Assembly: GCF_004115085.1 (NCBI RefSeq)
Contig: NZ_QXJP01000022.1
Span: forward strand, 32,325 to 64,324
DNA from: Longirhabdus pacifica
GTDB taxonomy: Bacteria; Bacillota; Bacilli; Paenibacillales; DSM-105158
Reading direction: 5' to 3'
DNA: 32,000 nucleotides
In this document: positions 7,724 through 26,910 of the stretch, in pieces
Layout: each line of letters begins with the position of its first letter
Numbering within the stretch: position 1 is the stretch's first letter
Notes under the pieces: model-generated
Told to the model about the DNA's origin: nothing
What the model saw: the letters and a program-made list of their open reading frames with translations, nothing else
Databases searched by the model: none
Translations under genes and position numbers: made by a program

Positions 7724-7769
7724 TTGACTGGAAAAAAATTATGAGGTAGTATATTAGAACAAATGTTCT
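7724..7769 (+). promoter_or_regulatory. Sigma-A-type promoter with overlapping LexA (Cheo) box
   Basis: TTGACT (7724-7729), 17 nt, TAGTAT (7747-7752). It is followed by aGAACaaatGTTCt (7756-7769), a perfect GAAC-N4-GTTC core of the Bacillus LexA operator, 25 nt upstream of ORF 7794. Confidence 0.7.
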
Positions 7770-7793
7770 TATTTTGTTTGTAAACCATAAGGG

Positions 7794-8303
7794 GTGAAGT
7801 ATATTATAGTATTAAGTGAACTGTCGGAGTTAATAGCAAAGTTAGAGCGTTGCTTGCGAAAAAACCAACCTTTTGTATATGATGATGTGCATTTTAGTTT
7901 AGAAGATCGGGAACAAAGAATAAAGTGCATTACCTATATTTTAAAAGATGTAGATCAAGAAGTTTGCGGAAGTGAGTATCATCTTTGGGTAGAGAAGTTA
8001 TCGGATCTTATTTTATATGAAGAATTAACAGACCATCATCCATATAAATCGTTTTATGCTGAATATCCTGTATTAAGTAAGTGGCAAATCAGCTCTCGTA
8101 AAGATAGGGAATACAATATTGTATTAGCTTACAATATAGATATGAACAAGCAAAAATGCTGCGATCCTGTCAGGAGAAAACGAACAGCAAAAGAAGAGTG
8201 GGTTCGTGAGGTGAACGACCAGAAAAAACTAAGGGAACAAAATGCATACTATAAACAGCAATCACAAGATAGTGAAGTTGAAAGTTTTATCATTTATAGC
8301 TAA
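7794..8303 (+). CDS. Hypothetical 169-aa protein, first gene of the island, predicted SOS-controlled
   Basis: ORF with its own promoter/LexA box and its own terminator. No recognisable domain; the C-terminus is basic (..RRKRTAKEEW..). The start is uncertain because GTG 7794 overlaps the only SD-like AAGGGG. Confidence 0.55.
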   Translation: MKYIIVLSELSELIAKLERCLRKNQPFVYDDVHFSLEDREQRIKCITYILKDVDQEVCGSEYHLWVEKLSDLILYEELTDHHPYKSFYAEYPVLSKWQISSRKDREYNIVLAYNIDMNKQKCCDPVRRKRTAKEEWVREVNDQKKLREQNAYYKQQSQDSEVESFIIYS

Positions 8304-8333
8304 TTCCACGTCAACGAACGTGGAATTTTTTTA
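8302..8333 (+). terminator. Intrinsic terminator of ORF 7794..8303
   Basis: aattccacg (8302-8310) / cgtggaatt (8319-8327), a perfect 9-bp stem with an 8-nt loop, then a T-run. Confidence 0.8.
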
Positions 8334-8364
8334 TGATTCTAACCCATTGTATCCAAAAAAAGTA

Positions 8365-8421
8365 TTGACGAAAGAAACAAATGGAATTAAAATGAGAACA
8401 AATGTTCCGAACAAGTGTTCT
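8365..8421 (+). promoter_or_regulatory. Sigma-A-type promoter followed by two tandem LexA (Cheo) boxes
   Basis: TTGACG (8365-8370), 17 nt, TAAAAT (8388-8393). Then aGAACaaatGTTCc (8395-8408) and cGAACaagtGTTCt (8408-8421), back to back over the expected +1 region. Confidence 0.8.
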
Positions 8422-8492
8422 TTCAAACCAATACAAGTTTAAATGTAAAATCAATAAAAATAAAAACTATTATAAAAATGAGGAGACATGCT

Positions 8493-8876
8493 ATGACAAT
8501 TTTAAATGTAGATATGATGGAGAAAGCACAATTTTATGTTGCTAAATATGCGTTGGATAATGTTGATGGGGTAAAACGATTACTTGCCGACCGTTATATT
8601 ATAGATGAACGAAGGTTTAAAGGAGATACTGCTGCAAGCGATATTTTAATAGATTTGAGTCGTGCAATAGAAAAAGCAAATCTTAGTGAGAAGCAAGTCG
8701 AAGTCATTGCACTTATTTATGGGTACTGGCAATTAACACAGAGAGAAGCATCGGAAGTCATGGGAGTTTCACAGAAGCAAGTATGGAGATATGTACAAGC
8801 AGCAGTTGAGAAAATTGCCGATGTATTTGCAGAGTGGAAATACAATGAAATTGAAGTGTGGATGGAAGTCGAATAA
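8493..8876 (+). CDS. Sigma-70 region-4-like late-gene activator (PBSX Xpf / ArpU-like)
   Basis: The C-terminal ..LSEKQVEVIALIYGYWQLTQREASEVMGVSQKQVWRYVQAAVEKI.. is a typical sigma region 4 HTH. SD AGGAGA lies 6 nt before ATG 8493. The ORF-track start at 8415 lies inside the LexA boxes. Its position, immediately before the tail genes, matches xpf. Confidence 0.7.
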   Translation: MTILNVDMMEKAQFYVAKYALDNVDGVKRLLADRYIIDERRFKGDTAASDILIDLSRAIEKANLSEKQVEVIALIYGYWQLTQREASEVMGVSQKQVWRYVQAAVEKIADVFAEWKYNEIEVWMEVE

Positions 8877-9017
8877 AAAAAATAAAAAAAATTGCATTTA
8901 GGGGGTATAATTTTTGAAGTTCGTTACCTACTTATATGAACAATCAGAAACATCACCACAAGATGCTTTATTGTTCACTACACTGTAATGTCATCTACTT
9001 GGAATAGGTTATAGAAT

Positions 9018-9056
9018 AAAACGTCGTTGATCACAGATCATAACGGCGTTTTTTCT
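9018..9056 (+). terminator. Strong intrinsic terminator between the regulator gene and the structural operon
   Basis: aaaacgtcgtt..(gatc aca gatc inner pairing)..aacggcgtttttt. A long, nearly perfect hairpin followed by T6. Confidence 0.8.
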
Positions 9057-9178
9057 ATAGGAAGGAAAGGATTGGGAAGGGACAAGATGAAGACACATGA
9101 TCAAGACAAAGCTTTGGATGAACAAATGTCGGAACATTTTATTCATCCCTTGTAAGTTGAAAAAAGGAGGTGATGAAC

Positions 9179-9628
9179 ATGTCCATTGAAACTAACTTTG
9201 CAGCTATGGAACAATTTTTGCAGCAAACCCTTTCAGCCAATCATGTTGTAAGGCATGAGAAGCCGAGTGTGGTGGAGGACGGAACGTTTGTCATACGATT
9301 TATGGAAGACAAAAGAGAAATCCAATCCCCCTATCAAATGAAAAGTACAAAACAATTTGCTATCGATTACTACGAGCAAAACATGAACAACGTACTAAAG
9401 CAAATGGACATGTTAAGTGACGCCTTATATGAGGCAAAGAGCATCGCACTACCTAACGCTAAACCTGCGATGAGAGTCCAATCGTTCACTTACTCTATTC
9501 CAGAAGATAACGTTGACATACAGTGTACAGGGGTACTAGCTGTTACCGAAATGCTTCCTTTCCAACAAGGAACGTACAGCAAAATCAAAAATGTTTATGC
9601 AACATATCAAAACAATGAGGAGGAATAA
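9179..9628 (+). CDS. Hypothetical protein immediately upstream of the sheath gene (positional candidate for a tail terminator/completion protein)
   Basis: SD GGAGG (9166-9170) is 8 nt before ATG 9179. It is separated from the sheath gene by only 3 nt (stop 9628, sheath ATG 9632). I recognise no family. Confidence 0.6.
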   Translation: MSIETNFAAMEQFLQQTLSANHVVRHEKPSVVEDGTFVIRFMEDKREIQSPYQMKSTKQFAIDYYEQNMNNVLKQMDMLSDALYEAKSIALPNAKPAMRVQSFTYSIPEDNVDIQCTGVLAVTEMLPFQQGTYSKIKNVYATYQNNEEE

Positions 9629-9631
9629 AAC

Positions 9632-10651
9632 ATGGCAGGAGGATCTTGGGATTCAACAGCATTACCAAAGCGTCCAGGTTTATATTTAAATTTTGTAGAG
9701 GCTGCAACAGCACAAATTCAAGGAGGTGCTCGTGGCATTATCGCTATGCCGATCATGACTTCATCCGGAACAGCAGTAGCGAAAACAATGTACACCGTTT
9801 CCAAAGAAAGTGAAGCAGCAACATTATTCGGAGAAGGGAACATTCAATCCATCAAATTTGCATTACAAGGTGGTGCAAAAGAAGTACTCGCTTATGCTAT
9901 GGAAACTACGCCAGATTATGCTGCAATGCGTGATGAATTTGATAAGTACGAATTCAACGTATTCGTGTTTGACGGTACAGCAGATACAAGCGAGCAAGCA
10001 AGTGTAAAAACATGGATTGAAACAAACCGTTCCGAAGGGAAACACTTCATGGCTGTGCTCGGCCGCTCAGATGATAGCGCTGTTCCAGCAACAAAAGAAT
10101 TCGATGAGGATTATATCATTCATCTCATTAATGGTGTCAAAATTGAGGATGAAACGCATCATTCAGCAGCTTTTGCACCATATATTGCAGGACTTATTGC
10201 AGGTACAGCGATTAATAAATCGATTACGTACAACCAAGTATTTGTAGATGATGTCAATGTAAGATTCAAGCACAGTGACATCAAAACAGCACTAGGCAAC
10301 GGTGCCCTTGTACTTGTACATGACGGTGGAAGAGTGAAAATCGAACAAGGTATTTCATCTTCAACGAAAAAAATCCGTGCAATCAGAGCAAGACAAGCAG
10401 TTGCAACGGACATCACCAAAGCAGCAGCAGAAGCTTATATCGGTAAGTTGAATAATAATGAGGATGGTCAAAAAGCATTAATTGGTGTCATTAAAGCTTA
10501 TTTAGAAACGTTAGAGAATGCGAATGTGCTTTCTGACATTACAGTGGAATTAGATGCAAACCAAGTATCCGAGGGAGACTCTGTATTCCTAATTGTAGGG
10601 TATAAAGAAGTAGATTCCATGGAACGTATATTCTTAAACATTAATGTATAA
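9632..10651 (+). CDS. xkdK: Contractile tail sheath protein (XkdK-like)
   Basis: N-terminus MAGGSWDSTALPKRPGLYLNF.. and overall similarity to PBSX/SPP-type sheath proteins. SD AGGAGGA upstream. Followed by the tube gene. Confidence 0.9.
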   Translation: MAGGSWDSTALPKRPGLYLNFVEAATAQIQGGARGIIAMPIMTSSGTAVAKTMYTVSKESEAATLFGEGNIQSIKFALQGGAKEVLAYAMETTPDYAAMRDEFDKYEFNVFVFDGTADTSEQASVKTWIETNRSEGKHFMAVLGRSDDSAVPATKEFDEDYIIHLINGVKIEDETHHSAAFAPYIAGLIAGTAINKSITYNQVFVDDVNVRFKHSDIKTALGNGALVLVHDGGRVKIEQGISSSTKKIRAIRARQAVATDITKAAAEAYIGKLNNNEDGQKALIGVIKAYLETLENANVLSDITVELDANQVSEGDSVFLIVGYKEVDSMERIFLNINV

Positions 10652-10684
10652 ACAAAATAAAATTAACTGAGGAAGGTGATTGAT

Positions 10685-11122
10685 GTGGCATTAGATGCAT
10701 CACGTACAATTAACGGAACATTTGGAGAAGTTTGGTATGATGGAGAATGGTTAACAAATATAAAAAGTGCAGAAGCTGCTGTAGAGATAAACAAAGAAGA
10801 AATACAACGTGCTGGGACTCGTTGGGTAGCTCATAAGGTTACTAGTTTAACCGGCAGTGGTACAATGACCGGGTATAAGATTACTACAGAATTTATTGAG
10901 CGAATAGGACAAGTAGCAGATGATACAAAGGGGCCATTTGTAACAAGTATTATGATGAAGTTAGCTGATCCTGAATCATTTGGTGCATACCGTGTTCGTC
11001 TAAAAGGCGTTCAATTCGATAGTATTCCGCTAATGAACTATGAAGTTGGTTCAATAGTAGAGGAAGAGCTACCATTTACATTCACTGGATATGAATTAGA
11101 AGATAAGATACAAGCTCAATAA
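10685..11122 (+). CDS. xkdM: Tail tube protein (XkdM-like)
   Basis: (M)ALDASRTINGTFGEVWYDGEW..EELPFTFTGYEL is XkdM-like from end to end. SD GAGGAAGG ends 9 nt before GTG 10685. The ORF-track GTG at 10676 abuts the SD. Confidence 0.9.
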   Translation: MALDASRTINGTFGEVWYDGEWLTNIKSAEAAVEINKEEIQRAGTRWVAHKVTSLTGSGTMTGYKITTEFIERIGQVADDTKGPFVTSIMMKLADPESFGAYRVRLKGVQFDSIPLMNYEVGSIVEEELPFTFTGYELEDKIQAQ

Positions 11123-11133
11123 AGAGATTTTAG

Positions 11134-11171
11134 TAGCGGTTTATTTCCTTATTAGAAATAAACCGCTTTTT
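11134..11171 (+). terminator. Intrinsic terminator-like hairpin directly after the tube gene, inside the structural operon
   Basis: agcggtttatttc (11134-11146) / gaaataaaccgct (11154-11166), a perfect 13-bp stem with a 7-nt loop, followed by ttttt. Confidence 0.75.
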
Positions 11172-11233
11172 ACTTTTATTCATGCAAGTATTTCATAGCA
11201 TTATTCTATTTTATACATTGGAGGAAAAATAAA

Positions 11234-11626
11234 ATGAGTAACCAACGACAGGAAGAAATTTTAAATGCATTATTAGATACGGAAATCAAACCACAAAAAG
11301 AATTATATATGAAACGATTTGGTGTTAATTTCTCCATCGAAGCATTAGATGGAAAAACAATACATCGAATTCGTGAACAGGCAAGTTACCCAGTGAAGAA
11401 TGGAAAACAGCTTGATGAAGAGAAGTTTGGAGCATTAATCATTGAAAAATCTTGTAAACAACCAAATTGGTCTGATGATAAGCTAGTGAATGCCTTCGGC
11501 CCTACACCAGTTGATGTTATTCAAAAGCGTTTATTAGCAGGAGAAATCGCAAGATTAACAACCGAAATTTTAAATCTTTCTGGATTTGGTGATGAGGAAG
11601 AACAAATTGAAGAAATAAAAAACTAA
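11234..11626 (+). CDS. xkdN: Tail assembly chaperone (XkdN-like), zero-frame product
   Basis: Position between the tube and tape-measure genes, acidic C-terminus (GDEEEQIEEIKN), SD GGAGGAAAAA upstream. Confidence 0.8.
   Translation: MSNQRQEEILNALLDTEIKPQKELYMKRFGVNFSIEALDGKTIHRIREQASYPVKNGKQLDEEKFGALIIEKSCKQPNWSDDKLVNAFGPTPVDVIQKRLLAGEIARLTTEILNLSGFGDEEEQIEEIKN
11617..11623 (+). promoter_or_regulatory. Programmed -1 ribosomal frameshift slippery heptamer A_AAA_AAC
   Basis: Zero-frame codons ata aaa aac are followed by taa taa. The -1 frame opens exactly here and stays open for 63 codons, up to the tape-measure start. Confidence 0.7.
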
Positions 11627-11814: not shown

Positions 11815-13872
11815 GTGGATCAGGATTTAAGTAAGACGATAAAAAAAATAAATACTTTTTCAGACAGCTTAAAAGAAGCCCTAGATCGGCTAGATGCTTT
11901 TAATAAGTCTTTAAAAAAGATGAGTGAAGTTAGCAAAGTAGCAGCTAAAAAATTGAAAAAAACCACAAAAGAAACCAGAAAGTTAACGGACCAAACAAAT
12001 ATGCTAGCCGCATCTATGAAACAGACATCCTCTGCTTCAAGCAAACTTAAGAAGACAATGAAAACTATCCCTTCTATCTCAAATAAAGCGTGGAACATGA
12101 TGAATAAAACAAAGATCATCAAATCTTTCACAAAAACTGCAACTCATGGATTTCAGTCCTTCATAAATAAGACGAATCAAGCCAAAGGAAAACTAAGTGC
12201 TTTTTTTAATAAGATGAAGTACGCAGGATTAATAAAAAAGTCGTTTGGTAAACTGGGTTCAGTTTTCACATCTACATTCGGAGGATTGAAATCAGGTGCT
12301 GGAAAAGCATTTGGAGCAATGAAGTCTACATCCTCTAAAGCTTTTGCAGGAATGAAAAGCGGATTGTTAATGGTTGCTGATTTAGCTGTAAAAGCCGCAA
12401 CTGCTGTATTTAGTCTAGCTTCAACAGCTTTGAAATCGGCTGCAAAGCGGGAAACGCAAGTTATACCTATCCAAGCGGCTATACACGCAAAACTTGGTGG
12501 TGGTGAAGATGCAAAGGCAAAAGCTGCTCAATTAACATCAGACCTAGTTAACGAAATGAAAAAGAAGGCAGATGGTTCAAGGCTTTCCACAGATAATTTT
12601 CTTGCCTCTGCCAATTCGTTTACTCCTATAACAACGGATCAAAGTGAATTAAATCAATTAGTCGATTTTGCGAATAGAATGGATGCTGCTACTGGTAAAG
12701 GCATGTCATCTTTATCAGATGAACTAATGCAAGTCATGCAGGGTAATACGGATGCATTTGCACAAAAGTATGACATTGCTGATCAATTTGTAGGGTTTGA
12801 TCAACTACAAACAAACGCAGAAAAGATCCAACGACTAGATGAAATATTAGAAGGTATTGGTCATTCCACTTATGCGGTGGAGTTAATGGACAATAGTGCA
12901 ATGGGAGAATATTTGCAATTTACTACACGATTTAAAGAAGGTTTGGCTCAGGTTGGATTAATGGCCTTAGACAAACTAAAACCACTACTATCACTGATGA
13001 ATGAAATATTTAGTGCTGATAAAATGCAACCTTTCATTCAAATGGGAGGTAACTTATTTGCTGGTCTAATAGAGGGGGTAATGTATCTAATTCAGTTTAT
13101 ACAATTAAACTGGCCAAAGATTCAGCAATATTTTGCTAATGGTGTAGCGCTATTAACACCAGTATTTAATGCGTTTAAAGATGCTATGATTACCATCATT
13201 GAAGCCGTGAAACCGTATTGGGGCTCATTTATAGAAACTATACTCTCCGTTCAAACCGCAGTAAAGCCCGTTTTCACATTAATTGCTAGTTTAATTCGAG
13301 CGATTGGATCTGTGGTAGAAGCTGTAATGCCTACTGTTATGGATATTTTTAATACCGTTTTTCCTATGGCAGCGGACCTAGCAGGTACTTTGGCAGAAGG
13401 AATTAACTGGCTCGTGACTGAAATAGTTGAACCACTAATTCCTCTCATTGGAGATGTTATTAGCATAATGTGGGGAATAGTTGAGCCTATAATTGGTTCT
13501 CTCAAGTCTGCGTTTGACTTCCTTGCAGATAGTATTGGTAGTGTTGTAGGGAATGTAACGGACTTCTTTAAATCTGTAGGAGATGTTGGTGGAGAACTTA
13601 TTGGCAATGCTATTAATTTCGTTACAGGTGGAGATAGCGTGGATGGTTCTCATTCTAGCGGCCTTTCTTACGTTCCAAGAGATGGATATATTGCCCGTTT
13701 GCACAAAGGGGAAAGGGTATTAACATCTGAGGAAAATAAAGCTTACGGTAGCAATAGCATGCACATTGCTAAATTAGCGGATCAGATTGTTGTTAGAGAA
13801 GATGCAGATATTGATCGTATTGCTAGTGTTTTAGTTTCTAGAATGAGTGAAGCAGGCATGTCTTATGCTTAG
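11815..13872 (+). CDS. xkdO: Tail tape measure protein (XkdO-like, 685 aa)
   Basis: Lys/Ala/Ser-rich helical N-terminal half, hydrophobic Gly/Ala/Ile-rich central part, C-terminal ..LSYVPRDGYIARLHKGERVLT.. motif typical of tape measure proteins. Position after the chaperone. Confidence 0.85.
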   Translation: MDQDLSKTIKKINTFSDSLKEALDRLDAFNKSLKKMSEVSKVAAKKLKKTTKETRKLTDQTNMLAASMKQTSSASSKLKKTMKTIPSISNKAWNMMNKTKIIKSFTKTATHGFQSFINKTNQAKGKLSAFFNKMKYAGLIKKSFGKLGSVFTSTFGGLKSGAGKAFGAMKSTSSKAFAGMKSGLLMVADLAVKAATAVFSLASTALKSAAKRETQVIPIQAAIHAKLGGGEDAKAKAAQLTSDLVNEMKKKADGSRLSTDNFLASANSFTPITTDQSELNQLVDFANRMDAATGKGMSSLSDELMQVMQGNTDAFAQKYDIADQFVGFDQLQTNAEKIQRLDEILEGIGHSTYAVELMDNSAMGEYLQFTTRFKEGLAQVGLMALDKLKPLLSLMNEIFSADKMQPFIQMGGNLFAGLIEGVMYLIQFIQLNWPKIQQYFANGVALLTPVFNAFKDAMITIIEAVKPYWGSFIETILSVQTAVKPVFTLIASLIRAIGSVVEAVMPTVMDIFNTVFPMAADLAGTLAEGINWLVTEIVEPLIPLIGDVISIMWGIVEPIIGSLKSAFDFLADSIGSVVGNVTDFFKSVGDVGGELIGNAINFVTGGDSVDGSHSSGLSYVPRDGYIARLHKGERVLTSEENKAYGSNSMHIAKLADQIVVREDADIDRIASVLVSRMSEAGMSYA

Positions 13873-13883
13873 GAGGTGATAAA

Positions 13884-14525
13884 GTGCAATTTTGGTTAAG
13901 TTACAATAACGAAGCGGAAACTTTTCAACTTCCAGTGAATCCACAAAACATCAGCATATCTTCTGGTCATAACTTTAACGATGTACAAGTTTCCAAACTT
14001 GGTGAGTTTACCATCATCGGAGAAGAGCAACTCAAACAGTATGATTTCTCATCTTTTTTTCCAAAAGACTATCAGCCGATGTATTGTGAATATGATGGCT
14101 TTCCAGAACCTTGGCAGGCAGTAAAGAAAATAGAAGAGTGGCAAAAGTCAGGTAACCCCGTTAGCTTTAAAATTACAAGTCATGATGAAACCCAAAAAGT
14201 AAATACCGCAGCAACCATCCGCTCATTCAATTACGAAGAAAAAGCGGGTAGCCCTGGAGATATTTACTTTACGATTAGTTTGAAGGAATTTAAATTCCTA
14301 GAATTTCAAAAAGTAGAAGGTCCCGATGACTTGCAAAAAGTAAGACCAAATAACCAAGAGAAAGTAACAACTTACATTGTAAAAAGCGGAGATTCATTAT
14401 GGAAAATTGCGCAAAAAACATTGGGAAATGGAAGTGAGTGGCGCAAAATTTATGATGCAAACGTCGATGTCATCGGACCGAATGAAAACTTGATTTACCC
14501 GAAACAAAAGTTGGTGATTCCATAA
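13884..14525 (+). CDS. xkdP: LysM-domain tail protein (XkdP-like)
   Basis: C-terminal LysM: YIVKSGDSLWKIAQKTLGNGSEWRKIYDAN...LIYPKQKLVIP. SD GGAGGTG lies before GTG 13884. Confidence 0.85.
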   Translation: MQFWLSYNNEAETFQLPVNPQNISISSGHNFNDVQVSKLGEFTIIGEEQLKQYDFSSFFPKDYQPMYCEYDGFPEPWQAVKKIEEWQKSGNPVSFKITSHDETQKVNTAATIRSFNYEEKAGSPGDIYFTISLKEFKFLEFQKVEGPDDLQKVRPNNQEKVTTYIVKSGDSLWKIAQKTLGNGSEWRKIYDANVDVIGPNENLIYPKQKLVIP

Positions 14526-15520
14526 TGAATTTACAAATAGCATATAACGGAGACTTTTATATTGATCCTATCGTGACTTCTGTTACATGGTCGGGAGATA
14601 TTAAACAGGCATTCCGCAAACTAGAACTTAGTATTTCCAATACGGAAAATGGGGATAATCCTATCATTACGTTTGAAAAAGGGAAACCACTAGTCCTTTC
14701 AAAAGACGATAAAGAACTATTTCGCGGTGTTATTTTTTCTCATTCTATGGAATTAGATGGGACGATGAAACTAACGGCATACGATGAAAATATATATTTA
14801 ACAAAAAACATGGATACGAAAAAATTTGTCAACATGACAGCTTCTGAAATTATCGGGCAGCTATGTAGTGAGTATGATATTCTCGTTGGATCGATTCAAG
14901 ATACAGGCTATGTGCTGCCAAAATTAATTTTACGAGACAAAACATTATGGGATATGATGATTACCGCCTTAACGGAAACGAAGAAACAAACCGGAAGGCG
15001 CTTTTTTATTTATTCTGAACAAGGAAAACTATTTGTTAAAGAACGCAAAGAAAGAGTAGTAGAGTGGGTTTTACAAAACGGATTTAACATATTAGGCGCA
15101 TCCTATTCTGAATCTATCGAAGACTTACGCAATCAAGTGAAGGTATACAGTGGAGATATTAATAAGGGTCCCTACGATGAAGAGATTGAGCATGACGATC
15201 AGTCTATTGAAAAATATGGTTTAATGCAGCATTTGGAAACGGCAAGCAACGATCAAAAACAGTCTCAACTAAAACAATTAGCAAAACAGTTATTAAAAGA
15301 CTTGAACAAAGTGTCGGAAGAAGCAAGCATCGAAGCATTAGGTCACGATGGCGTTATTTCTGGAACATCCGTGGATGTCACCGAAGCCATGACAGGCATG
15401 AAAGGTGCTTACTATGTCGTAACAGATAGTCATACTTTCGAGAACAATATGCATCGCATGCAAGTGACATTATCTGAAAAAGAAGAGCTTCCTACACTAG
15501 AATATACAGAGCAAGAGTAG
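14525..15520 (+). CDS. xkdQ: Baseplate hub / late-control-D-like tail protein (XkdQ-like)
   Basis: TAATG overlap with the previous gene. Size and N-terminus (..VTSVTWSGDIKQAFRKLELSI..) resemble XkdQ/YqbQ. Confidence 0.8.
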   Translation: MNLQIAYNGDFYIDPIVTSVTWSGDIKQAFRKLELSISNTENGDNPIITFEKGKPLVLSKDDKELFRGVIFSHSMELDGTMKLTAYDENIYLTKNMDTKKFVNMTASEIIGQLCSEYDILVGSIQDTGYVLPKLILRDKTLWDMMITALTETKKQTGRRFFIYSEQGKLFVKERKERVVEWVLQNGFNILGASYSESIEDLRNQVKVYSGDINKGPYDEEIEHDDQSIEKYGLMQHLETASNDQKQSQLKQLAKQLLKDLNKVSEEASIEALGHDGVISGTSVDVTEAMTGMKGAYYVVTDSHTFENNMHRMQVTLSEKEELPTLEYTEQE

Positions 15521-15555: not shown

Positions 15556-16026
15556 ATGAAAGTGAATGAAGAAAAGCCAGAAGGCGGCTCCTATAGCAAG
15601 CTCATACAAATGATGCAAACATTCGGCTATAACAAAGATGTAGATGTCGAATTAGCAACCGTACTGTCTGTTGAACCTCTGAAAATTAAAGTGGACAATA
15701 TGAACATTGAATTAGAGGGTACGGATTTAATTGTAGCGGAGCAATTGTTGGAACATAAACGTACGTTAAACATAAATCAGCAGCCTATGACGGTGCAAGC
15801 AGATGTATCCCAACATGATATTAGCGCCACCAGTTCATGTACTGCTGGGGGTTCTACTATCCCCAATAATAACGTTACGTTTACAACATTAGGCTTGGAT
15901 GCCGAAGTTTCAGGAGAAAATATCGAAGTGACGATCATGTCTAAACTTGAAGTTGGAGACCGTGTTATTGTCGCCTCGATACAAGATAATCAAATTTTTG
16001 TCGTATTAGATAAGGCGGTGATTTAA
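15556..16026 (+). CDS. xkdR: Baseplate spike/plug-like protein (XkdR-like, DUF2577)
   Basis: Order in the cluster and the ..ATVLSVEPLKIKVDNMNIELEG.. pattern of the DUF2577 family. SD AGGAGGAGG upstream. Confidence 0.7.
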   Translation: MKVNEEKPEGGSYSKLIQMMQTFGYNKDVDVELATVLSVEPLKIKVDNMNIELEGTDLIVAEQLLEHKRTLNINQQPMTVQADVSQHDISATSSCTAGGSTIPNNNVTFTTLGLDAEVSGENIEVTIMSKLEVGDRVIVASIQDNQIFVVLDKAVI

Positions 16027-19749: not shown

Positions 19750-19802
19750 CATAGATAGTATGAAAAGAAACAACATTTGATCTACCTGCAACATACCAAT
19801 CA

Positions 19803-19870
19803 GCAAAAGATGTGGATGGGTAGCGACCTTTGCGGTTTATGCAAGAGGAGCACCCAGCCACATCTTTTGC
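19803..19870 (+). repeat. Structured intergenic repeat, copy 1
   Basis: Perfect 13-bp outer stem gcaaaagatgtgg / ccacatcttttgc, 5-bp inner stem tgggt / accca, conserved 29-nt core gcgacctttgcggtttatgcaagaggagc (19823-19851). Confidence 0.75.
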
Positions 19871-19882
19871 GTTTCAACTAGC

Positions 19883-19946
19883 AAAATACATGTATGCATC
19901 GCGACTTTTGTGAACTACGCAAGTGGAGCAAGCAGGCATATATTTT
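19883..19946 (+). repeat. Structured intergenic repeat, copy 2
   Basis: Stem aaaatacatgtatgc / gcaggcatatatttt (15 positions: 2 mismatches, 1 G-T). Core gcgacttttgtgaactacgcaagtggagc (19901-19929). It ends 5 nt before SD GGGAGG of the second xkdU. Confidence 0.7.
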
Positions 19947-19993
19947 ACCTCGGGAGGCTGAATACCATACTAACTCGAAAATATAAACAAGAA

Positions 19994-20545
19994 ATGCTAG
20001 ATTACTTGCCACGTTATTACCAAGATGCACGCATCCCACAAAACATCGTAAATTTAGAAGCTGAAGAAGTACAGCAACTAAATGATGCCGTACAAGATGT
20101 ACTGGATCAATTTTTTGTATCTACCGCCACATGGGGGTTAGAACACTGGGAGCGTATTTGTGACATCCCAACAGATAATTTTAAGCCCGTCCAAGAAAGA
20201 CGCTCTGTCATTGAATCCAAGCTAAGAGGGGTCGGTACCGTTAATGCTGATCTCATCAAGACAGTAGCTAAAGCATACGTCAATGGTGAAGTAGAAATTA
20301 CGGAAAATCAAAAGTTATACCAGATTAACATCACATTTGTGGGTCAGCGCGGCGTGCCATCTAACTTAGCAGACATACAAAATGCCATTAATGAAATCGT
20401 CCCAGCACACTTACAAACGACATTTACATTCACGTACTTACCGTGGAGTGAATTAGAAGGTTATAAAACAACCTATAACGATATAAAAGCCTATCAGTGG
20501 GGCGAATTACAAACTATGTTTCTAAATGATAGCAATTCAACATAG
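19994..20545 (+). CDS. xkdU: XkdU-like DUF2313 protein, copy 2 (paralogue of 17546..18136)
   Basis: MLDYLPRYYQDARI..ATWGLEHWERICDI.. is colinear with copy 1. The start is uncertain. ATG 19994 has no SD. SD GGGAGG (19952-19957) is 9 nt before an in-frame ATA (19967). The ORF-track GTG at 19910 lies inside repeat copy 2. Confidence 0.75.
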   Translation: MLDYLPRYYQDARIPQNIVNLEAEEVQQLNDAVQDVLDQFFVSTATWGLEHWERICDIPTDNFKPVQERRSVIESKLRGVGTVNADLIKTVAKAYVNGEVEITENQKLYQINITFVGQRGVPSNLADIQNAINEIVPAHLQTTFTFTYLPWSELEGYKTTYNDIKAYQWGELQTMFLNDSNST

Positions 20546-20577
20546 TTAAAACTCAACGATGCGATGCTTAACTGAAC

Positions 20578-20641: not shown

Positions 20642-20652
20642 ACGCCTACCTA

Positions 20653-20720
20653 GCAGAATATATGTCTGTGCCGCGACTTTTGTGACCTATGCAAGTGGAG
20701 CAAACAGACATATGTTTTGC
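20653..20720 (+). repeat. Structured intergenic repeat, copy 3
   Basis: 17-bp stem gcagaatatatgtctgt / acagacatatgttttgc (2 G-T pairs, no mismatch). Core gcgacttttgtgacctatgcaagtggagc (20673-20701) matches the copy 2 core at 27 of 29 positions. Confidence 0.75.
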
Positions 20721-20731
20721 CCCCTATGTTC

Positions 20732-20791
20732 CATCTCTACTATCGTTCTTTTTTAAGCGAATTAAGAGCGTACGATAGTAGAGATGTTTTT
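20732..20791 (+). terminator. Perfect 15-bp hairpin plus T-run just upstream of the fibre-2 RBS (terminator-like)
   Basis: catctctactatcgt (20732-20746) / acgatagtagagatg (20772-20786) with a 25-nt loop, followed by ttttta. The large loop makes its efficiency uncertain. Confidence 0.55.
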
Positions 20792-20833
20792 ATATACAGT
20801 AAAGTTGCAAGATGAAAGGAGAGGAAATAATAG

Positions 20834-23764
20834 ATGAGCAATAACAAAACCAACCATTTGAATCTGAATGTATGGGAATCATCAGATTACGTACTACACG
20901 AAGAATTCAATGAAAATTTTCAAACAATAGATCTTGAAGTAGCAGACGCAAAAGAACACCTAACAAATTTACAAGATGAAGTGAATGATTTAGAAGAGAA
21001 TGTTGAGCATATTAAGCAAAAACTAGCGGATACATCGGCAACGACCATCTCTTTACAGCGAGGACAAAACATTGTAACTACCGAACAAGCATCTGGTGTT
21101 CGTATGACAGAGATAATAGGGAGGACAATGGTTAACTTGTTAGGTAGCGATGGCAACTGTGAGGACACAAGTAAATTTTCCGTGCAAATTGCTTTAAAAG
21201 CGGATACATTCCAGCTAAGTAAAGCGGATGCAGTGTATGGTGGACATGGGATTCGTGCTACTTTCTCCTTAGTAGATGATTTGGAATATGGAACTAGTTT
21301 TTATGGTATACGGAATTACAACATCAAACAAGGGAAACACTATTTAGCTGCGGCACATATTAAAGATAGTAGTTCATCAATTAAAGGAAATGTTGCTGTA
21401 AGAAAATTTAATACGGAATATCATATTCAAAGTACAGATAGTAAATTAACATCGACATTAGACTATGTCACTTTCACAGCAGATGGAACAGAAGAGAGTG
21501 TAGGGATATATTTTAATGTTTTAGCTAATGAGCAATGGTGTGCTTTTGATGGCTTAAGGCTATACGAAATAATAGAAAGTGAAAAAACCTACATCGACTC
21601 ACTTAGTATCATAGAAGCGGAAAAATACATTGCAACGCGATATCCATATGTTGAAGGTTTACGTTCTTTAACAAATCCATATGTCATTCGTTATGGTAGA
21701 AATGTCATCCCTCCCTTTTCTGATTGGAATTTGTCGGAGGAAACTACGATAGATAAAGATTATAAACTTACATTACGTGCTACAGAACATGAGCGATGGA
21801 GCATCAGTCCGCCTATTTCAGTAGTTGCTGGTGAAGCCTATGCTTTTAGTGCTGACACTATGGACGGTAACGCCATCTATCAGTCGTGGAATGATGAAGG
21901 TGAGATCATAGAGGAAGAAGTCTTAGAAAATAACAGCTCACTTACCATTTCTGATGAAGCAGTGAAGATGACCATAAAAATAGGCAATACAGTGGAAAAA
22001 GGTACAGGTACATTCGGTTTTGAAAATTTAATGTTGGCGTTAGGCACAGCAAAAGTCAATTTTGAACCGCAAAACAATGATGAAATGTATGTCGAAACCG
22101 TCCTGCGATCAAGTATGGACGGTGAAGTATATGATTCGATCACTGAGCGAGACGGGATATTATACAAGAATAAGCGCATGGATCATATTGAGTTAACTGG
22201 AAAAATAATTTATAGATTAGTTGAAGATGTGTCAGGGGTAAAGAAAATAAGGCTTTCTAATGAATTTTTAGATAATTTCTTTAAGACATTTAAGAAAAAA
22301 CCAAACAAGCACCTATTAATAAAATATAACAATCAATTATTGGAACAAAGTATAGATGAAACAATAAAAGCAGATGCCTTTACTATATCGGAAGAAAAAG
22401 CTGTATTTATTTTTCTCTCCGACGAGGATACAGGCTGGGAAAATTATAATCCTTCTGAATGGGATATTTGTAGATATTTTAACGGTTGGAAATACATTGA
22501 TGGTGAGAAGTGGGAAAGCATTACAGGAAATAATGAAATTACAAATAGCTTACAATCACAAAAATCAATGCCTTCTAACTACACGCCTTATCAACTTCAA
22601 TATGAACTTGAAGAACCCATAGAAGAAGTAATTGAAGGTCAGTTAGGACTATCGTTTCTTACAGGGAAGAACCAAGTAGAGGTTGGTGAAGGAATTATTG
22701 TACAGGAGGAAGTTAGACCGAGAATTTTCAACTCTCAATACTGGATTAACGCTGCATTTGCAGAAAATCTTGGTGAACAATTGCCAAAGAAAAATTCAAA
22801 AATTTCATGTGTGTATCGGGACGGAAGGAAGGATGCTAATTGGAGTATTGCACCACATAATACTGATCTTGTATCTATGTATGGTAAAGAATACGCAGTT
22901 ATTTCTGAATATGACTATCATTCCGATTCAACTTACACCGTTACCTATCAAATGATAAATTCGTTAACTCCACCAATGTCTACAATGCATTTAGAATATG
23001 AGGGTAGTTTGCATACTGTAGTGGAATCTTTAGTGCAAAAAACAGCCGATCTGTCCAAGGAACTTACTTCTGTAACGAATAAAATAGATAGTGCTAAACA
23101 ATATTCCAACAAGTTAGAAAAAGAGATGCTGCATACCAAAGATACATTGTTGCTCGGTAATAATGATTGGTCCCCTTTAATATACGACTATAATAGTGAA
23201 GGATCTGTTGCATATCGTGCAGAGCATCAAGGTATTGTATTCACAGACGAGTGCTGGACAAAGGTTAGAATGAGAATGCCTGTTGACCCAGATAGTACGT
23301 ATTTTGTAAAGGCAAAAGTGAAGAAATTAGAAGGGGAAGAAGATACTAAATTTTGGTTGGGTGCGATCTCTCTTGATAACAATTATAACGAACTGCTTTA
23401 TGATACAGCCCATGTATACAATTATTTTGGAGCGGAGTTTCAAAATATATCGGCAGGAGAAACTGCATTTTTTGAGAGTGCAATTTCGGGTTATAACACA
23501 CCAGAGGAGAATTCCCATAATAAATTTGATCCAGATGCAAAATACTGGGATTTAGTGGTTATATGTAATTATGTAAATAGTTTAGACATTGTCGGAAAAG
23601 GTGAAACACTCATAGAATGGATTGAAGTAAGAAAAGCCCCATCCACTTTTTATGTAGGAGATAATAAAGTACTGGATGAAAGCACAATCCAAATCTCAAG
23701 CGACGGTAAGTTGCATTATAAATATAACGACAATTGGTATGAACTAAGTGGGATTCAAAAATAG
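20834..23764 (+). CDS. Tail fibre / receptor-binding protein 2, 976 aa (mosaic)
   Basis: N-terminal ..LNVWESSDYVLHEEFNENFQTID.. anchor. About 750 aa are colinear with fibre 3. The C-terminal 211 aa are homologous to fibre 1 aa ~77-253, plus the shared terminal motif ..ISSDGKLHYKYNDNWYELSG. SD AAAGGAGAGG upstream. Confidence 0.85.
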   Translation: MSNNKTNHLNLNVWESSDYVLHEEFNENFQTIDLEVADAKEHLTNLQDEVNDLEENVEHIKQKLADTSATTISLQRGQNIVTTEQASGVRMTEIIGRTMVNLLGSDGNCEDTSKFSVQIALKADTFQLSKADAVYGGHGIRATFSLVDDLEYGTSFYGIRNYNIKQGKHYLAAAHIKDSSSSIKGNVAVRKFNTEYHIQSTDSKLTSTLDYVTFTADGTEESVGIYFNVLANEQWCAFDGLRLYEIIESEKTYIDSLSIIEAEKYIATRYPYVEGLRSLTNPYVIRYGRNVIPPFSDWNLSEETTIDKDYKLTLRATEHERWSISPPISVVAGEAYAFSADTMDGNAIYQSWNDEGEIIEEEVLENNSSLTISDEAVKMTIKIGNTVEKGTGTFGFENLMLALGTAKVNFEPQNNDEMYVETVLRSSMDGEVYDSITERDGILYKNKRMDHIELTGKIIYRLVEDVSGVKKIRLSNEFLDNFFKTFKKKPNKHLLIKYNNQLLEQSIDETIKADAFTISEEKAVFIFLSDEDTGWENYNPSEWDICRYFNGWKYIDGEKWESITGNNEITNSLQSQKSMPSNYTPYQLQYELEEPIEEVIEGQLGLSFLTGKNQVEVGEGIIVQEEVRPRIFNSQYWINAAFAENLGEQLPKKNSKISCVYRDGRKDANWSIAPHNTDLVSMYGKEYAVISEYDYHSDSTYTVTYQMINSLTPPMSTMHLEYEGSLHTVVESLVQKTADLSKELTSVTNKIDSAKQYSNKLEKEMLHTKDTLLLGNNDWSPLIYDYNSEGSVAYRAEHQGIVFTDECWTKVRMRMPVDPDSTYFVKAKVKKLEGEEDTKFWLGAISLDNNYNELLYDTAHVYNYFGAEFQNISAGETAFFESAISGYNTPEENSHNKFDPDAKYWDLVVICNYVNSLDIVGKGETLIEWIEVRKAPSTFYVGDNKVLDESTIQISSDGKLHYKYNDNWYELSGIQK

Positions 23765-23835
23765 AGTAATTAGTTGTAAACATCGGCGTTAGTTCTTATC
23801 TAATTTTAGTAATGTGAAAGGAGAGGAAATAATAG

Positions 23836-26565
23836 ATGAGCAAGAAAACAGAAAATCTCGAGCTTCATACATGGGAATCATCAGATTATGTACTACACGA
23901 AGAATTTAATGAGAATTTTGAAACGATAGATACAACCGTGCAAGAAGTAAAGGATAGTGTAAACGATTTGCAAAGTGATTTAGGAGAAATACAGGGGAAA
24001 TTAGCAGATTCAACAAACAAAATAGTAACATTAAAACGAGGACACAATAAAGTCACGACTAATCAAGCTACCAATGTAACCTTTGATCAAATACGTGGGC
24101 GTACATTGATTAATTTATTAGGAAGAGAAGGGAATTGTGAGGAAGAAAGTAAATTTTCCGTTCAAATTGGTCAAGTAGCCAGTTCTTTTCAATCGAATAA
24201 GGAAAATGATTTTAACGGTAAATACGGTATAAAAGTATACTTTGACTTAGCAGATCAATATCCTGCTTCAAGTTACTATGGTATTCCTACTCAACATATT
24301 ATAAGCGGTAGAAACTATCTATTTGCATCAGTTATAAAAGATGGAAGTAGTTCTATTACTGGAACAGTAGCGGTAAGAAAGTCAGGAGGGTACCATAAAC
24401 TAAGTAACAAGAATAACAGTGCTTCATTTATTTTAGATTATGTAACATTCACCGCTGATGGTACAGAAAACAATGTTGGAATTCATTTTAAAATTGATTC
24501 AAATAATCAGTGGGTTGCTTTCGATAGTTTGCGTTTATATGAAATTTCTGACGAAGAAAAGACCTATATCGATTCTCTCACGCTTGAGGAAGCAACAAGT
24601 TATATCACAGTAGCTTATTCGTATGTAGATAGTGTGCAATCAATACAATGTCCTTATATCATTCGACATGGAAAAAACATGATACCTCCATTTCATGCAT
24701 GGGAATTAAGTAATGATATGATGATCCATGAAGACTACAGTGCAACATTAAATGCAACAGCATCTTCCACATTTAGTTATAGTCCAAAAATCCCGATAGT
24801 ACCTGAAGAAAATTATACTCTGAGCATGGATAAAGTAGAGGGGCAGCTGATATATCAGCTGTGGGACGATCAAGATGATCTTGTGATGGAGTCAGAGGTG
24901 ATTGGTGAAGTAACTTTCTCTCCTCCACCCAATGCTGTTAGTTTGAGCTTGAAATTAGGTATTACTTCATTTGAGACACCAGAGATGTATGTATTTGAGA
25001 ATCCAATGCTTAGCATAGGATCAAAAGTGATGAAATTCGAACCGAAAAATGATGATTTAGTATTTTTTAATACTAGCCTATGTTCGAGTATGGATAACGA
25101 GAAAGCAGATACAATAACAGAGCGTGAAAATAAATTGTACAAAACAACATGGTTTGAGAAGAAAGAATTGGATGGGTCGATGAATTGGCAATTACATGAA
25201 GAGGGATCTGGATACAAAATAGTAAAACTCTTAAACTTTGCAATAAATAAATCAATAGATATGAGTAATCTTGTTCTTATTTCTTATAACGGTCAAATTG
25301 TTGAAAATGAAGACTTTATATTAGAGAACGGAAGTTTACACATTAAGATTATGAATAGTGATAGTGGTTGGTCAGATATTACTCCCAATCCATATGATAT
25401 AAAAAGATATTTTAACGGGTGGAAATATAATGACGGAGAATTGGATCAAAGTGTTTTAAATGAAGACGAAAAAGTAGATAAGGGAACAGCGGTTCTTTAT
25501 AAATCATTTCAGTATACGCCTTATACAATCGTATACCAACTACAACAGTCTATTGAAGAAGAAATAGAGGGTCAAGTTGGTTTATCCCTTTTTGAAGGAG
25601 AGAATCAGTTAACTTTTGGTGAGGGGTTAATAGTAAAAGAAACAGTTACACCTAAATATTTCAATTCAAAGTATTGGATTAATGGTGCTTTTGAAGATAG
25701 CGAAGGATTAAGCTATAAAACAAAAAAAATCTTAGATGTATATGAAAATGGAAATGAAAAAGCAAGCTGGTCGAGAGTTTTTCATGAAGATGTAGATATA
25801 AAGCATTATGGTGATGAGCAAGCCATCATTGAAACTGGAAACTTTAATAAGAATGCCCAATATAGTGTTACTTATTTTGTAGCTGATAGTTTAAGTACAA
25901 AAGTACAACATATAGATATGCTTTATGATACAAATTTAAATATGGTAGTTCGTGAACTTGTTCAAGATATAGCTGACCAGAAACAGCAACTAGCTCAAGT
26001 TAATCATTCTTTATCTGAAAAGTATCTACGAAACGAAGGGAATCAATATAAAGAAGGGAAATTATACATTCGTCATGAAGGAGATGGTTTAGAGTTATTT
26101 CATCATGATACAAATGGATATGCTGGGATACAGTTGCATAGTAAAGGGAATGAAAACTCTGATTACGGTTATATTCGTTACTATGATGAAGCAAAGAATT
26201 TTGCTGAAGGTTTGTATGATTTACAAGAAGGGTTAGCAAATGGTGCGGATGTAAAAGAAGAAGGGTTGTTAGTTATTGGTTCAGAGAATGATCCACATAG
26301 CGTATTTGGTCCAGATCATTTGGTACTCAGAAGTGGTGCGAGGTTTATATTTGATGTAAATACAATGGTTTATGATTCAACAGACAATATATTAGCAGAG
26401 TTTCGATATAACGGAGATGTGAAAGCATATATGGACAACAATGGTGAAATCATTATTAATGATAATAAAGTATTACATGAAGGTAATATTCGAGTAAGCG
26501 ACGATGGGAAGTTGCAATATAAGTATAATAATGAGTGGTACAGCATGTCTGGAACAAAATCTTAA
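23836..26565 (+). CDS. Tail fibre / receptor-binding protein 3, 909 aa (paralogue of fibre 2 with a different tip)
   Basis: A 29-nt stretch (tgaaaggagaggaaataatagatgagcaa) spanning the RBS, start codon and first codons is identical to that of fibre 2. The N-terminal ~715 aa are colinear with fibre 2. The C-terminal ~190 aa are unrelated except for the final ..VSDDGKLQYKYNNEWYSMSG motif. Confidence 0.85.
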   Translation: MSKKTENLELHTWESSDYVLHEEFNENFETIDTTVQEVKDSVNDLQSDLGEIQGKLADSTNKIVTLKRGHNKVTTNQATNVTFDQIRGRTLINLLGREGNCEEESKFSVQIGQVASSFQSNKENDFNGKYGIKVYFDLADQYPASSYYGIPTQHIISGRNYLFASVIKDGSSSITGTVAVRKSGGYHKLSNKNNSASFILDYVTFTADGTENNVGIHFKIDSNNQWVAFDSLRLYEISDEEKTYIDSLTLEEATSYITVAYSYVDSVQSIQCPYIIRHGKNMIPPFHAWELSNDMMIHEDYSATLNATASSTFSYSPKIPIVPEENYTLSMDKVEGQLIYQLWDDQDDLVMESEVIGEVTFSPPPNAVSLSLKLGITSFETPEMYVFENPMLSIGSKVMKFEPKNDDLVFFNTSLCSSMDNEKADTITERENKLYKTTWFEKKELDGSMNWQLHEEGSGYKIVKLLNFAINKSIDMSNLVLISYNGQIVENEDFILENGSLHIKIMNSDSGWSDITPNPYDIKRYFNGWKYNDGELDQSVLNEDEKVDKGTAVLYKSFQYTPYTIVYQLQQSIEEEIEGQVGLSLFEGENQLTFGEGLIVKETVTPKYFNSKYWINGAFEDSEGLSYKTKKILDVYENGNEKASWSRVFHEDVDIKHYGDEQAIIETGNFNKNAQYSVTYFVADSLSTKVQHIDMLYDTNLNMVVRELVQDIADQKQQLAQVNHSLSEKYLRNEGNQYKEGKLYIRHEGDGLELFHHDTNGYAGIQLHSKGNENSDYGYIRYYDEAKNFAEGLYDLQEGLANGADVKEEGLLVIGSENDPHSVFGPDHLVLRSGARFIFDVNTMVYDSTDNILAEFRYNGDVKAYMDNNGEIIINDNKVLHEGNIRVSDDGKLQYKYNNEWYSMSGTKS

Positions 26566-26607
26566 TATATTGCACTTGATAAATAGATAAAGAGTTTTCC
26601 CATAGTA

Positions 26608-26910
26608 TTGGATTACAAAGATTCGGGGGAGGTGGACATCATAGATAGCCAATACAACATCATCGATTATTTTACACTGTATGGGCCGTTTGCGGTCCTT
26701 TTTGTTAGCTTATTTTTTTGGACGTTGAAAACATATAATACGAGAGAAGAATTGTATCGCAGTGAGATAGCAAACATTCGCAAAGAGTATGATATACAGT
26801 CCCAGCGACATCATGAGATATTAACCAAATTTGCAGAAAAATATGATATTGTTATAGATAAGTTGAACGCACTAGAAATAAAAATAGATACGAGTAAATA
26901 TGATGAATGA
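26608..26910 (+). CDS. bhlA: BhlA/UviB-family holin-like membrane protein
   Basis: Single N-terminal TM ..GPFAVLFVSLFFWTL.. followed by KTYNTREE and a charged coiled-coil tail, as in BhlA/UviB. The start is uncertain. TTG 26608 has no SD. SD GGAGG (26628-26632) precedes in-frame ATC 26638 and ATA 26641. Confidence 0.7.
   Translation: MDYKDSGEVDIIDSQYNIIDYFTLYGPFAVLFVSLFFWTLKTYNTREELYRSEIANIRKEYDIQSQRHHEILTKFAEKYDIVIDKLNALEIKIDTSKYDE

Follow-up and report, generated by a model that had tools for sequence, protein, structure and literature searches.

A 32,000-nucleotide stretch of the Longirhabdus pacifica genome (assembly GCF_004115085.1, contig NZ_QXJP01000022.1, positions 32,325 to 64,324 of the forward strand), hereafter the window, carries a complete contractile-tail gene set between positions 7724 and 26910, with sheath, tube, chaperone, tape measure, baseplate and fibres. 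The genes of the window and those of related loci make it likely that this cluster is a domesticated, head-less contractile phage tail, that is, an R-type tailocin, derived from a myovirus resembling Sporosarcina phage Lietuvens. The family of candidate tail-shaped bacteriocins to which it belongs is previously undescribed and widespread in Paenibacillaceae; the kind of weapon is already known. We found no description of this tailocin family in the literature, and nothing published on phage or tailocins for Longirhabdus.

Gene content of the tail cluster

Components were assigned by Pfam, PHROG and NCBIfam scans of the open reading frames (ORFs) of the window, together with searches against PDB sequences. 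In the following list, CD numbers refer to diffocin of Clostridioides difficile (CD1362–CD1374), for which a component map is available (PMC10996793), and 9g8s gp61 is a phage tail-tube initiator.

9179–9628, + strand: collar or tail-terminator candidate (weak Pfam match to Phage_tail_terminator_8, E = 0.008; called mainly from position)
9632–10651, + strand: tail sheath, 339 aa, short diffocin-like type (Pfam; CD1363, E = 3e-23)
10676–11122, + strand: tail tube, DUF2001 (Pfam)
11234–11626, with a −1 extension to 11814, + strand: XkdN-type tail assembly chaperone (Pfam)
11815–13872, + strand: tape measure protein, 685 aa (PHROG)
13884–14525, + strand: tube initiator (‘tube tail’), Dit-like, with a C-terminal LysM domain (Pfam; 9g8s gp61, E = 2e-30; CD1367, E = 3e-25)
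14525–15520, + strand: baseplate hub of the YqbQ/XkdQ type, 331 aa (Pfam; CD1368, E = 3e-24)
15556–16026, + strand: central spike candidate, DUF2577, XkdR-like (Pfam)
16027–16440, + strand: sheath initiator, gp25-like (Pfam)
16440–17549, + strand: baseplate J, or triplex protein Tri2 (Pfam; CD1371, E = 8e-50)
17546–18136, + strand: XkdU, Mu gp48 or triplex protein Tri1, copy 1 (Pfam; CD1372, E = 1e-17)

The sheath, hub, Tri2 and Tri1 proteins all find their best solved-structure matches in diffocin, and for the tube initiator the diffocin protein comes second to the phage one. The collar candidate is homologous to ORFs located 5′ of the sheath gene in relatives and holds the position of CD1362 in diffocin and of ORF13 in Lietuvens; a profile of seven sequences returned only noise when searched against PDB sequences. 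The spike candidate likewise has no PDB sequence match and is assigned from its position and Pfam. In one Chengkuizengella lineage, the DUF2577 gene follows xkdU instead of lying between the genes for hub and sheath initiator (18166–18642 in L003 and 17140–17535 in L060, where L numbers denote related loci).

At the end of the chaperone gene, the −1 slippery heptamer A_AAA_AAC (11617–11623) opens a 65-codon extension that stops exactly at the start of the tape-measure gene. Heptamer and extension peptide (KKLI.SGG...IFQR..PPDE) are both kept in all eight loci examined, phage Lietuvens included. None of the 16 structural ORFs is disrupted, and the 13 core ones have normal lengths when set against relatives at 30–68% identity.

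These results agree in most respects with an initial annotation made from the letters of the window. Each tail component that it named is recovered by the Pfam, PHROG or PDB-sequence searches, its frameshifted chaperone among them, and the ORF listing and domain scans confirm the interval of about 300 nt between a sigma-like gene and the tail module, as well as the final position of a holin-like gene. The module had also been described as tightly packed and translationally coupled. Packing is indeed tight from the collar gene to the first fibre gene, where junctions measure 0–35 nt or overlap with the sole exception of a 111-nt gap, and the overlapping baseplate J, XkdU1 and 537-aa fibre genes are probably translationally coupled; the tight packing does not extend to the last 7 kb, in which gaps of 160, 289, 72 and 43 nt separate the genes. 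The single XkdU implied earlier is present, but a second lies at 19910–20545, and the host, taken to be Bacillaceae-like, belongs to the Paenibacillaceae; the sheath has 100% identity to a L. pacifica protein in RefSeq.

Absence of head genes and nature of the flanks

Head genes were sought in the window by running Pfam on all substantial ORFs of the 32 kb and by tblastn, for which 17 proteins of the head and neck from two related phages served as queries. None of the 17 gave a match. Neither the Pfam scan nor tblastn queries with head and lysin proteins from related phages revealed a head, packaging, terminase, portal, integrase, repressor or amidase gene in the 32 kb, and the locus is free of replication genes as well; for terminase, portal, capsid, integrase, repressor and amidase, the initial annotation had read the same from the ORFs. 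An Xre/CI-type repressor domain was not found in the window, where helix–turn–helix matches are restricted to sigma-like proteins.

The housekeeping character of the flanks, also proposed earlier, is borne out by Pfam, with the SufA side on the left and a hydrolase and an oxidoreductase on the right. The left flank holds UbiD-like, HEPN, NifU, DUF1450 and NADH dehydrogenase-like genes, two MqnC/E-type radical SAM genes and SufA, and the right flank small membrane proteins, an alpha/beta hydrolase, an oxidoreductase, an ECF sigma factor and an ABC transporter. Around the cluster we found neither a tRNA gene nor a flanking direct repeat that would mark integration, and the base composition of the cluster is that of its flanks, with no shift between them.

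Related loci and probable selection on the head-less state

Related loci were scanned in one genome per species, which yielded 55, and a locus was counted as head-less if no head gene lay within 10 kb 5′ of its sheath gene. By this definition 25 loci are head-less, and the other 30 carry head genes in that interval. In a neighbour-joining tree of five concatenated tail proteins, in which 24 head-less loci and the window were included, the head-less loci fall into three monophyletic clades. The first unites the window with Chengkuizengella axinellae and Marinicrinis sediminis (bootstrap 100), the second consists of four Paenibacillus loci (bootstrap 100), and the third contains 17 loci of Paenibacillus, Fontibacillus, Gorillibacterium and Ectobacillus (bootstrap 74).

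The genes that border these loci were identified by Pfam. On the 5′ side, L003 is preceded by MetRS, an MFS transporter, ZnuA and MntR, L004 by a biotin-synthase-like gene, L016 by ParB-like and MFS transporter genes, and L058, in the complete genome of Chengkuizengella sp. SCS-71B, by haem biosynthesis genes; these four upstream regions are mostly housekeeping, with a few ORFs lacking a Pfam match. On the 3′ side, L059 (Marinicrinis) and L061 (C. axinellae) are followed by housekeeping genes. L003 and L061 are the two edges of the C. axinellae cluster, which thus has mostly housekeeping genes on both sides. Full phages of the same family are arranged differently, with terminase, portal and capsid genes directly 5′ of the collar gene. 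In Lietuvens and in the partial MRSA107 record, the collar homologue is immediately preceded by genes for terminase, portal, scaffold and capsid, together with four more ORFs that presumably encode connectors. The MRSA107 record (L002, KY038360.1) is an unannotated partial genome, flagged UNVERIFIED_ORG, with the title ‘Staphylococcus phage MRSA107’ and the organism name Brevibacillus phage MRSA107; since its head and tail modules match Brevibacillus/Paenibacillus prophages, Staphylococcus appears to be a mislabelling.

Selection on eight tail genes was assessed from the ratio of non-synonymous to synonymous divergence (dN/dS) by the Nei–Gojobori method. The ratio is 0–0.14 in two head-less pairs with unsaturated dS, and at most 0.20 between the window and L003, a pair for which dS is saturated. 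Because the head-less clades are monophyletic, the flanks examined are mostly housekeeping genes and dN/dS is low, we argue for long-term purifying selection after head loss and not for decay. The suggestion of the initial annotation that a head-less tail cluster was being kept by selection thereby gains support in silico, from the 25 head-less loci of the 55, their three clades and the dN/dS range of 0–0.14.

Predicted LexA control of the regulators

Between the left flank and the collar gene lie two small regulator genes, each with a sigma-A-type promoter.

7724–7769, + strand: promoter P1, TTGACT-17-TAGTAT, with a LexA (Cheo) box, AGAACAAATGTTCT, starting 4 nt past the −10 element (sequence pattern)
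7794–8303, + strand: 169-aa protein, phrog_13088, start codon uncertain (PHROG)
8302–8327, + strand: intrinsic-terminator-like hairpin with a T-run, 3′ of the 169-aa gene (sequence)
8365–8421, + strand: promoter P2, TTGACG-17-TAAAAT, with two tandem LexA boxes, cores at 8396–8407 and 8409–8420 (sequence pattern)
8493–8876, + strand: candidate sigma-like late activator, 127 aa from ATG 8493, with a GAGGAG ribosome-binding site (Pfam)

The perfect LexA core GAAC-N4-GTTC occurs four times in the window against an expectation of 0.39, a count reached in none of 100 shuffles, and three of the four cores lie immediately 3′ of the −10 elements of P1 and P2. The putative P1 box (7756–7769) stands 5′ of the 169-aa gene, and the tandem P2 boxes, 2 nt past the −10 element, stand 5′ of the sigma-like gene. 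The start of the latter is probably ATG 8493, although the listed ORF runs from 8415 to 8876. The same design of −35, 17-nt spacer, −10 and LexA box recurs 5′ of the sigma-like gene in seven head-less loci of three other genera, namely Marinicrinis (L009), Chengkuizengella (L060, L061) and Paenibacillus (L004, L007, L008, L018). Putative LexA boxes that are present at both regulator promoters, enriched in the window and conserved across the phylogeny are signs that the locus may be SOS-inducible.

The 169-aa gene also accompanies the sigma-like gene in related head-less loci, as its conserved partner. The idea that it supplies sigma region 2, making a split sigma factor, was neither supported nor excluded, as Pfam and NCBIfam give no match; its AlphaFold model is all-helical (pLDDT 70, pTM 0.49), and Foldseek against the PDB returned nothing below E = 2. 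The regulator pair lies 5′ of the collar gene in the window, in L009 and in four Paenibacillus loci. In Chengkuizengella, a LexA-box regulator pair is located 3′ of the amidase gene in L061 (9577–10498) and convergent to the cluster in L060 (9574–10522). As these regulators are not 5′ of the tail genes, they must work in trans, on a late promoter some distance away.

In L005 and L033, which are head-bearing prophages, the homologue of the sigma-like gene sits just 5′ of the large-terminase gene, and no LexA box was found 5′ of it in either prophage even when one core mismatch was allowed. Our reading is that an ancestral phage late activator has been put directly under LexA, whose binding we infer, like the sigma activity and the late promoter, from patterns in the DNA. 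The lack of a CI/Xre repressor would follow from this arrangement, because the LexA boxes sit on the regulator promoters. One candidate late-promoter motif, GGGGTATA...TATA(A)TGAA, is visible 3′ of the regulator genes in the window and in L009, and 5′ of the collar gene in L003; it was dropped as evidence, being too loose, and its formal pattern missed the copy in the window.

Fibre genes and a second XkdU

Downstream of the first XkdU gene, the cluster contains three fibre candidates, a second XkdU gene and the holin-like gene.

18136–19749, + strand: fibre or receptor-binding candidate 1, 537 aa (PHROG)
19910–20545, + strand: XkdU/Tri1 copy 2, 52% identical to copy 1 (Pfam)
20834–23764, + strand: fibre candidate 2, 976 aa, phrog_13022 (PHROG)
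23836–26565, + strand: fibre candidate 3, 909 aa, phrog_13022 (PHROG)
26608–26910, + strand: BhlA/UviB-family holin-like protein (Pfam, PHROG)

Fibres 2 and 3 match at 43% identity over some 750 aa and diverge in the C-terminal part of fibre 3; the regions around their ribosome-binding sites are 97% identical over 32 nt. Residues 66–272 of fibre 1 share 43% identity with the C-terminal domain of fibre 2, and short N- and C-terminal motifs are common to all three, which have no relatives among PDB sequences. Related loci carry one XkdU each, with a 537-like fibre in Chengkuizengella axinellae and three of the Paenibacillus loci and a 976-like fibre in Marinicrinis and the prophages L011 and L048. 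Given this distribution, the L. pacifica arrangement looks like a native XkdU1–fibre pair to which an XkdU2–fibre–fibre cassette has been appended. Whether the second XkdU gene is expressed is uncertain.

Lysis genes and a possible second tail locus

In Marinicrinis L059 and Chengkuizengella L060 and L061, an Amidase_3 endolysin gene comes after the BhlA gene; in the window, the holin-like gene is present and the endolysin is absent. Elsewhere in the L. pacifica genome, another contig encodes a second sheath, P0003 (WP_128893597.1), which is 63–65% identical and groups within the head-less clade, where its neighbour is the C. axinellae locus. Two further BhlA/UviB paralogues, P0123 (WP_128893631.1) and P0125 (WP_128895021.1), are also encoded on other contigs, one of them on the 324-kb contig of the second sheath. 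These genes point to one or more additional tail loci in the genome, and a second tailocin locus could plausibly supply a lysin in trans.

Internal hairpins and repeats

Three structured features interrupt the cluster.

9009–9059, + strand: strong terminator-like hairpin with a U-run, in the 300-nt gap between the sigma-like and collar genes (ΔG −21.8 kcal/mol, z −6.7)
20732–20791, + strand: terminator-like hairpin with 25-bp arms and a U-run, between xkdU2 and the 976-aa fibre gene (ΔG −27.1 kcal/mol, z −6.7)
19800–19871 and 19878–19949 (in tandem), and 20650–20721, + strand: three copies of a 72-nt hairpin repeat (folding)

The two terminator-like hairpins hint at control by termination and antitermination, or at separate transcription units. 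The repeat copies have minimum free energies of −40.8, −17.1 and −30.5 kcal/mol, with compensatory changes in the outer stem, and bracket xkdU2, the listed GTG start of which lies inside copy 2. Rfam has no family for the repeat in the window, and a search of 57 related loci gave no further copy; the repeat may represent a REP/MITE-like element or a scar left by recombination.

Weighing the alternatives

Several observations weigh against reading the locus as a working tailocin. No endolysin gene follows the BhlA gene of the window, and tblastn finds no amidase remnant there. Only sigma-70 region 4 is detectable in the sigma-like protein, so that ‘sigma factor’ as opposed to ‘activator’ is unproven, and no convincing late promoter could be defined. 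The terminator-like hairpins at 9009–9059 and 20732–20791 lie inside the presumed operon, and xkdU2 has no canonical start codon paired with a Shine–Dalgarno sequence. The 331-aa hub aligns to residues 10–310 of the 581-aa CD1368 and is missing the 250-aa bifunctional hydrolase domain (lytic transglycosylase and endopeptidase) of the diffocin protein. Lastly, the search for head genes covered the 32-kb window, and such genes could lie elsewhere in the genome.

Some of these points would suit a decaying prophage remnant, in which the head genes were deleted by chance, the tail genes have not yet degraded and no useful particle is made: the missing endolysin, the second XkdU gene with its flanking repeats and irregular start, the hairpins within the cluster and also the gaps of 160–289 nt in the fibre region. 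We nevertheless consider decay unlikely. The structural ORFs are intact and the core ones of normal length, the head-less state is monophyletic and old, and dN/dS is low in the head-less pairs with unsaturated dS; moreover, the LexA-box regulator promoter is conserved across four genera, and the frameshift signal is conserved as well.

The confinement of the head-gene search to the window bears on a different explanation, in which the cluster supplies the tail part of a defective phage that is split in two, or of a system like a gene transfer agent, with head genes that are encoded elsewhere, co-induced with the tail genes and joined to these tails. The second sheath and the two further BhlA genes on other contigs are compatible with such a division, and PBSX is a precedent in Bacilli for defective particles that bear heads. 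This explanation is quite unlikely, in our view, as the homologues of Lietuvens ORF9–12, the presumed head–tail connectors of the capsid–collar interval, are absent from the window and from all head-less relatives. The second L. pacifica sheath belongs to the head-less clade, beside a C. axinellae locus that is bordered on both sides by mostly housekeeping genes, and no third L. pacifica sheath of the family appears among the best 120 matches. In Chengkuizengella sp. SCS-71B, for which the genome is complete, L058 is head-less, with haem-biosynthesis genes in the 5′ position.

An extracellular contractile injection system of the Afp, PVC or MAC kind, delivering effectors to eukaryotic or bacterial targets in place of pore killing, would fit the contractile architecture, the marine host and the three large 3′ proteins of unknown function, but is very improbable, because Pfam, PHROG and NCBIfam scans found no AAA+ ATPase, Afp16-type cap or cargo toxin gene, the gene set is of the phage and diffocin type (frameshifted chaperone, LysM initiator, XkdU), and the large 3′ proteins share N-terminal anchor motifs with the post-XkdU fibre genes of related phages and prophages.

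Proposed mechanism

For the tailocin reading, which we prefer, a sequence of events can be proposed, of which we infer the steps from LexA silencing to fibre attachment from elements of the sequence. In the undamaged cell, LexA would occupy the boxes 2–4 nt past the −10 elements of the two sigma-A-type promoters and keep the sigma-like activator and its 169-aa partner silent. DNA damage would lead to RecA-stimulated cleavage of LexA and to expression of both regulator genes, and the sigma-like protein would then turn on a tail operon of about 17.7 kb starting at 9179. The products would build a sheathed tube of about 100 nm on a diffocin-type baseplate made of tube initiator, hub, spike, sheath initiator and Tri2/Tri1 triplex, with the collar closing the far end. 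At least one of the three fibre proteins would attach through Tri1/XkdU and set the target range.

For release, the BhlA/UviB holin-like protein would permeabilise the producer cell. Because the locus has no endolysin, breakdown of the wall would need a lysin from outside it, provided either by host autolysins or by the amidase of a paralogous locus. Diffocin and R-pyocin provide the analogy for the last step, in which released particles would attach to related bacteria, contract and kill them by piercing the membrane.

A more elaborate version of this proposal is possible, and we put it forward tentatively. In it, the window represents one member of an uncharacterised and ancient family of LexA-wired head-less tails, spread over three clades and seen in no fewer than 25 species, from Paenibacillaceae and from families close to it; throughout this family, the late activator of an ancestral phage has come directly under the host SOS response. 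L. pacifica would hold two paralogous loci, of which this one has lost the endolysin and gained a second Tri1 and two fibres, giving a multi-receptor tailocin that is released through the lysis genes of its sister locus in a division of labour.

Neighbouring genes

Neither Pfam, PHROGs and NCBIfam nor the related loci offer a match for a 116-aa ORF at 6870–7220, which has a near-consensus promoter (6736–6764) and AAGGAG as its ribosome-binding site. On its 3′ side comes an AT-rich non-coding spacer of about 500 nt (7230–7720, 29% GC), between sufA and the tailocin regulators. The ORF could be part of the element, perhaps with a role in immunity or regulation. At the other end, two small predicted membrane proteins (27049–27605, − strand), one with a weak DUF3953 match, are encoded convergently with the holin gene, directly on its 3′ side; their genes may have nothing to do with the cluster, or may be of the immunity type.

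Further out in the left flank, a protein with a Cthe_2314-like HEPN domain (872–1564) adjoins the UbiD-family gene and is unrelated to the tail cluster. An adjoining pair of MqnC/MqnE-type radical SAM genes with the CofH_C domain (3516–5827, − strand) suggests that L. pacifica uses the futalosine route to menaquinone.

Comparison with known systems

PBSX of Bacillus subtilis retains terminase, portal and capsid genes, packages host DNA, and has an Xre repressor, the XlyA amidase and a sheath of the long type. It also has a sigma-like positive regulator 5′ of its late genes, Xpf, which we take to be comparable to the one in the window. The initial annotation called the cluster PBSX-type, and this holds for the Pfam families of the tail and their order, which both loci share as XkdN, XkdP-like LysM, XkdQ/YqbQ, XkdR (DUF2577), XkdS, XkdT and XkdU. 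By sequence, however, the closest characterised relative is diffocin, and the head genes, Xre repressor, XlyA-type amidase and long sheath of PBSX have no counterpart in the window. Judged by its gene content, the locus is neither a PBSX-type defective phage nor an injection system of the Afp/PVC type; its architecture places it with R-type tailocins, in the tail lineage of diffocin and PBSX.

R-type pyocins of Pseudomonas aeruginosa are head-less contractile tails encoded in the chromosome. DNA damage induces them, lysis releases them, and their fibres determine the killing range. Pyocins are built on a P2-like tail, are controlled by the PrtR repressor and PrtN activator, and come with a full holin–lysin cassette and a single fibre with its chaperone, whereas in the window the putative LexA boxes lie on the activator promoter itself. 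Among Paenibacillaceae, the literature yielded one phage tail-like bacteriocin that has been characterised, produced by Brevibacillus laterosporus and having a PBSX-like tail region and a BhlA/UviB holin (PMC9406221). Its assignment to the same family was considered and rejected, as it has an XkdK-type sheath of about 48 kDa, which belongs to another sheath family, and terminase and integrase genes in the region (PMC9406221).

The closest annotated complete phage is Sporosarcina phage Lietuvens (MT104122), whose tail is syntenic with that of the window from the collar to XkdU at 27–51% identity and uses an identical frameshift heptamer. Unlike the window, Lietuvens carries an integrase, terminase, portal, scaffold and capsid, four ORFs between capsid and collar (presumed connectors), an endolysin and replication genes, and no LexA box is found near its late genes.

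Diffocin shares with the window the order collar, sheath, tube, chaperone, tape measure, tube tail, hub, spike, sheath initiator, Tri2, Tri1 and receptor-binding protein. Both have a short sheath of about 340–350 aa, are head-less and belong to Gram-positive hosts. The diffocin host is of a different order, and the similarity is remote, at a level detectable by hidden Markov models. Diffocin is described as SOS-inducible (PMC6088184). The two loci differ at the baseplate and in release: the window has three mid-sized fibre genes and two Tri1 paralogues where diffocin has one very large receptor-binding protein; its tube initiator includes a LysM domain, as does 9g8s and unlike diffocin; and its BhlA holin stands without an endolysin, again unlike diffocin.

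To our knowledge, molecular detail on R-type tailocins of Gram-positive bacteria comes essentially from diffocin alone. A large, diverse and apparently selected family in spore-forming Paenibacillaceae of soil and sea would widen this base. For the L. pacifica locus itself, the absent endolysin and the three fibre genes raise questions of release and target range. The family as a whole offers natural baseplate variants, such as a hub without the hydrolase and a tube initiator with LysM, a panel of exchangeable receptor-binding modules, and a simple candidate regulatory circuit that runs from a LexA box through a small sigma-like activator to the tail operon. Direct wiring to LexA of this kind would also serve genome scans as a sequence signature that separates domesticated tail loci from prophages.

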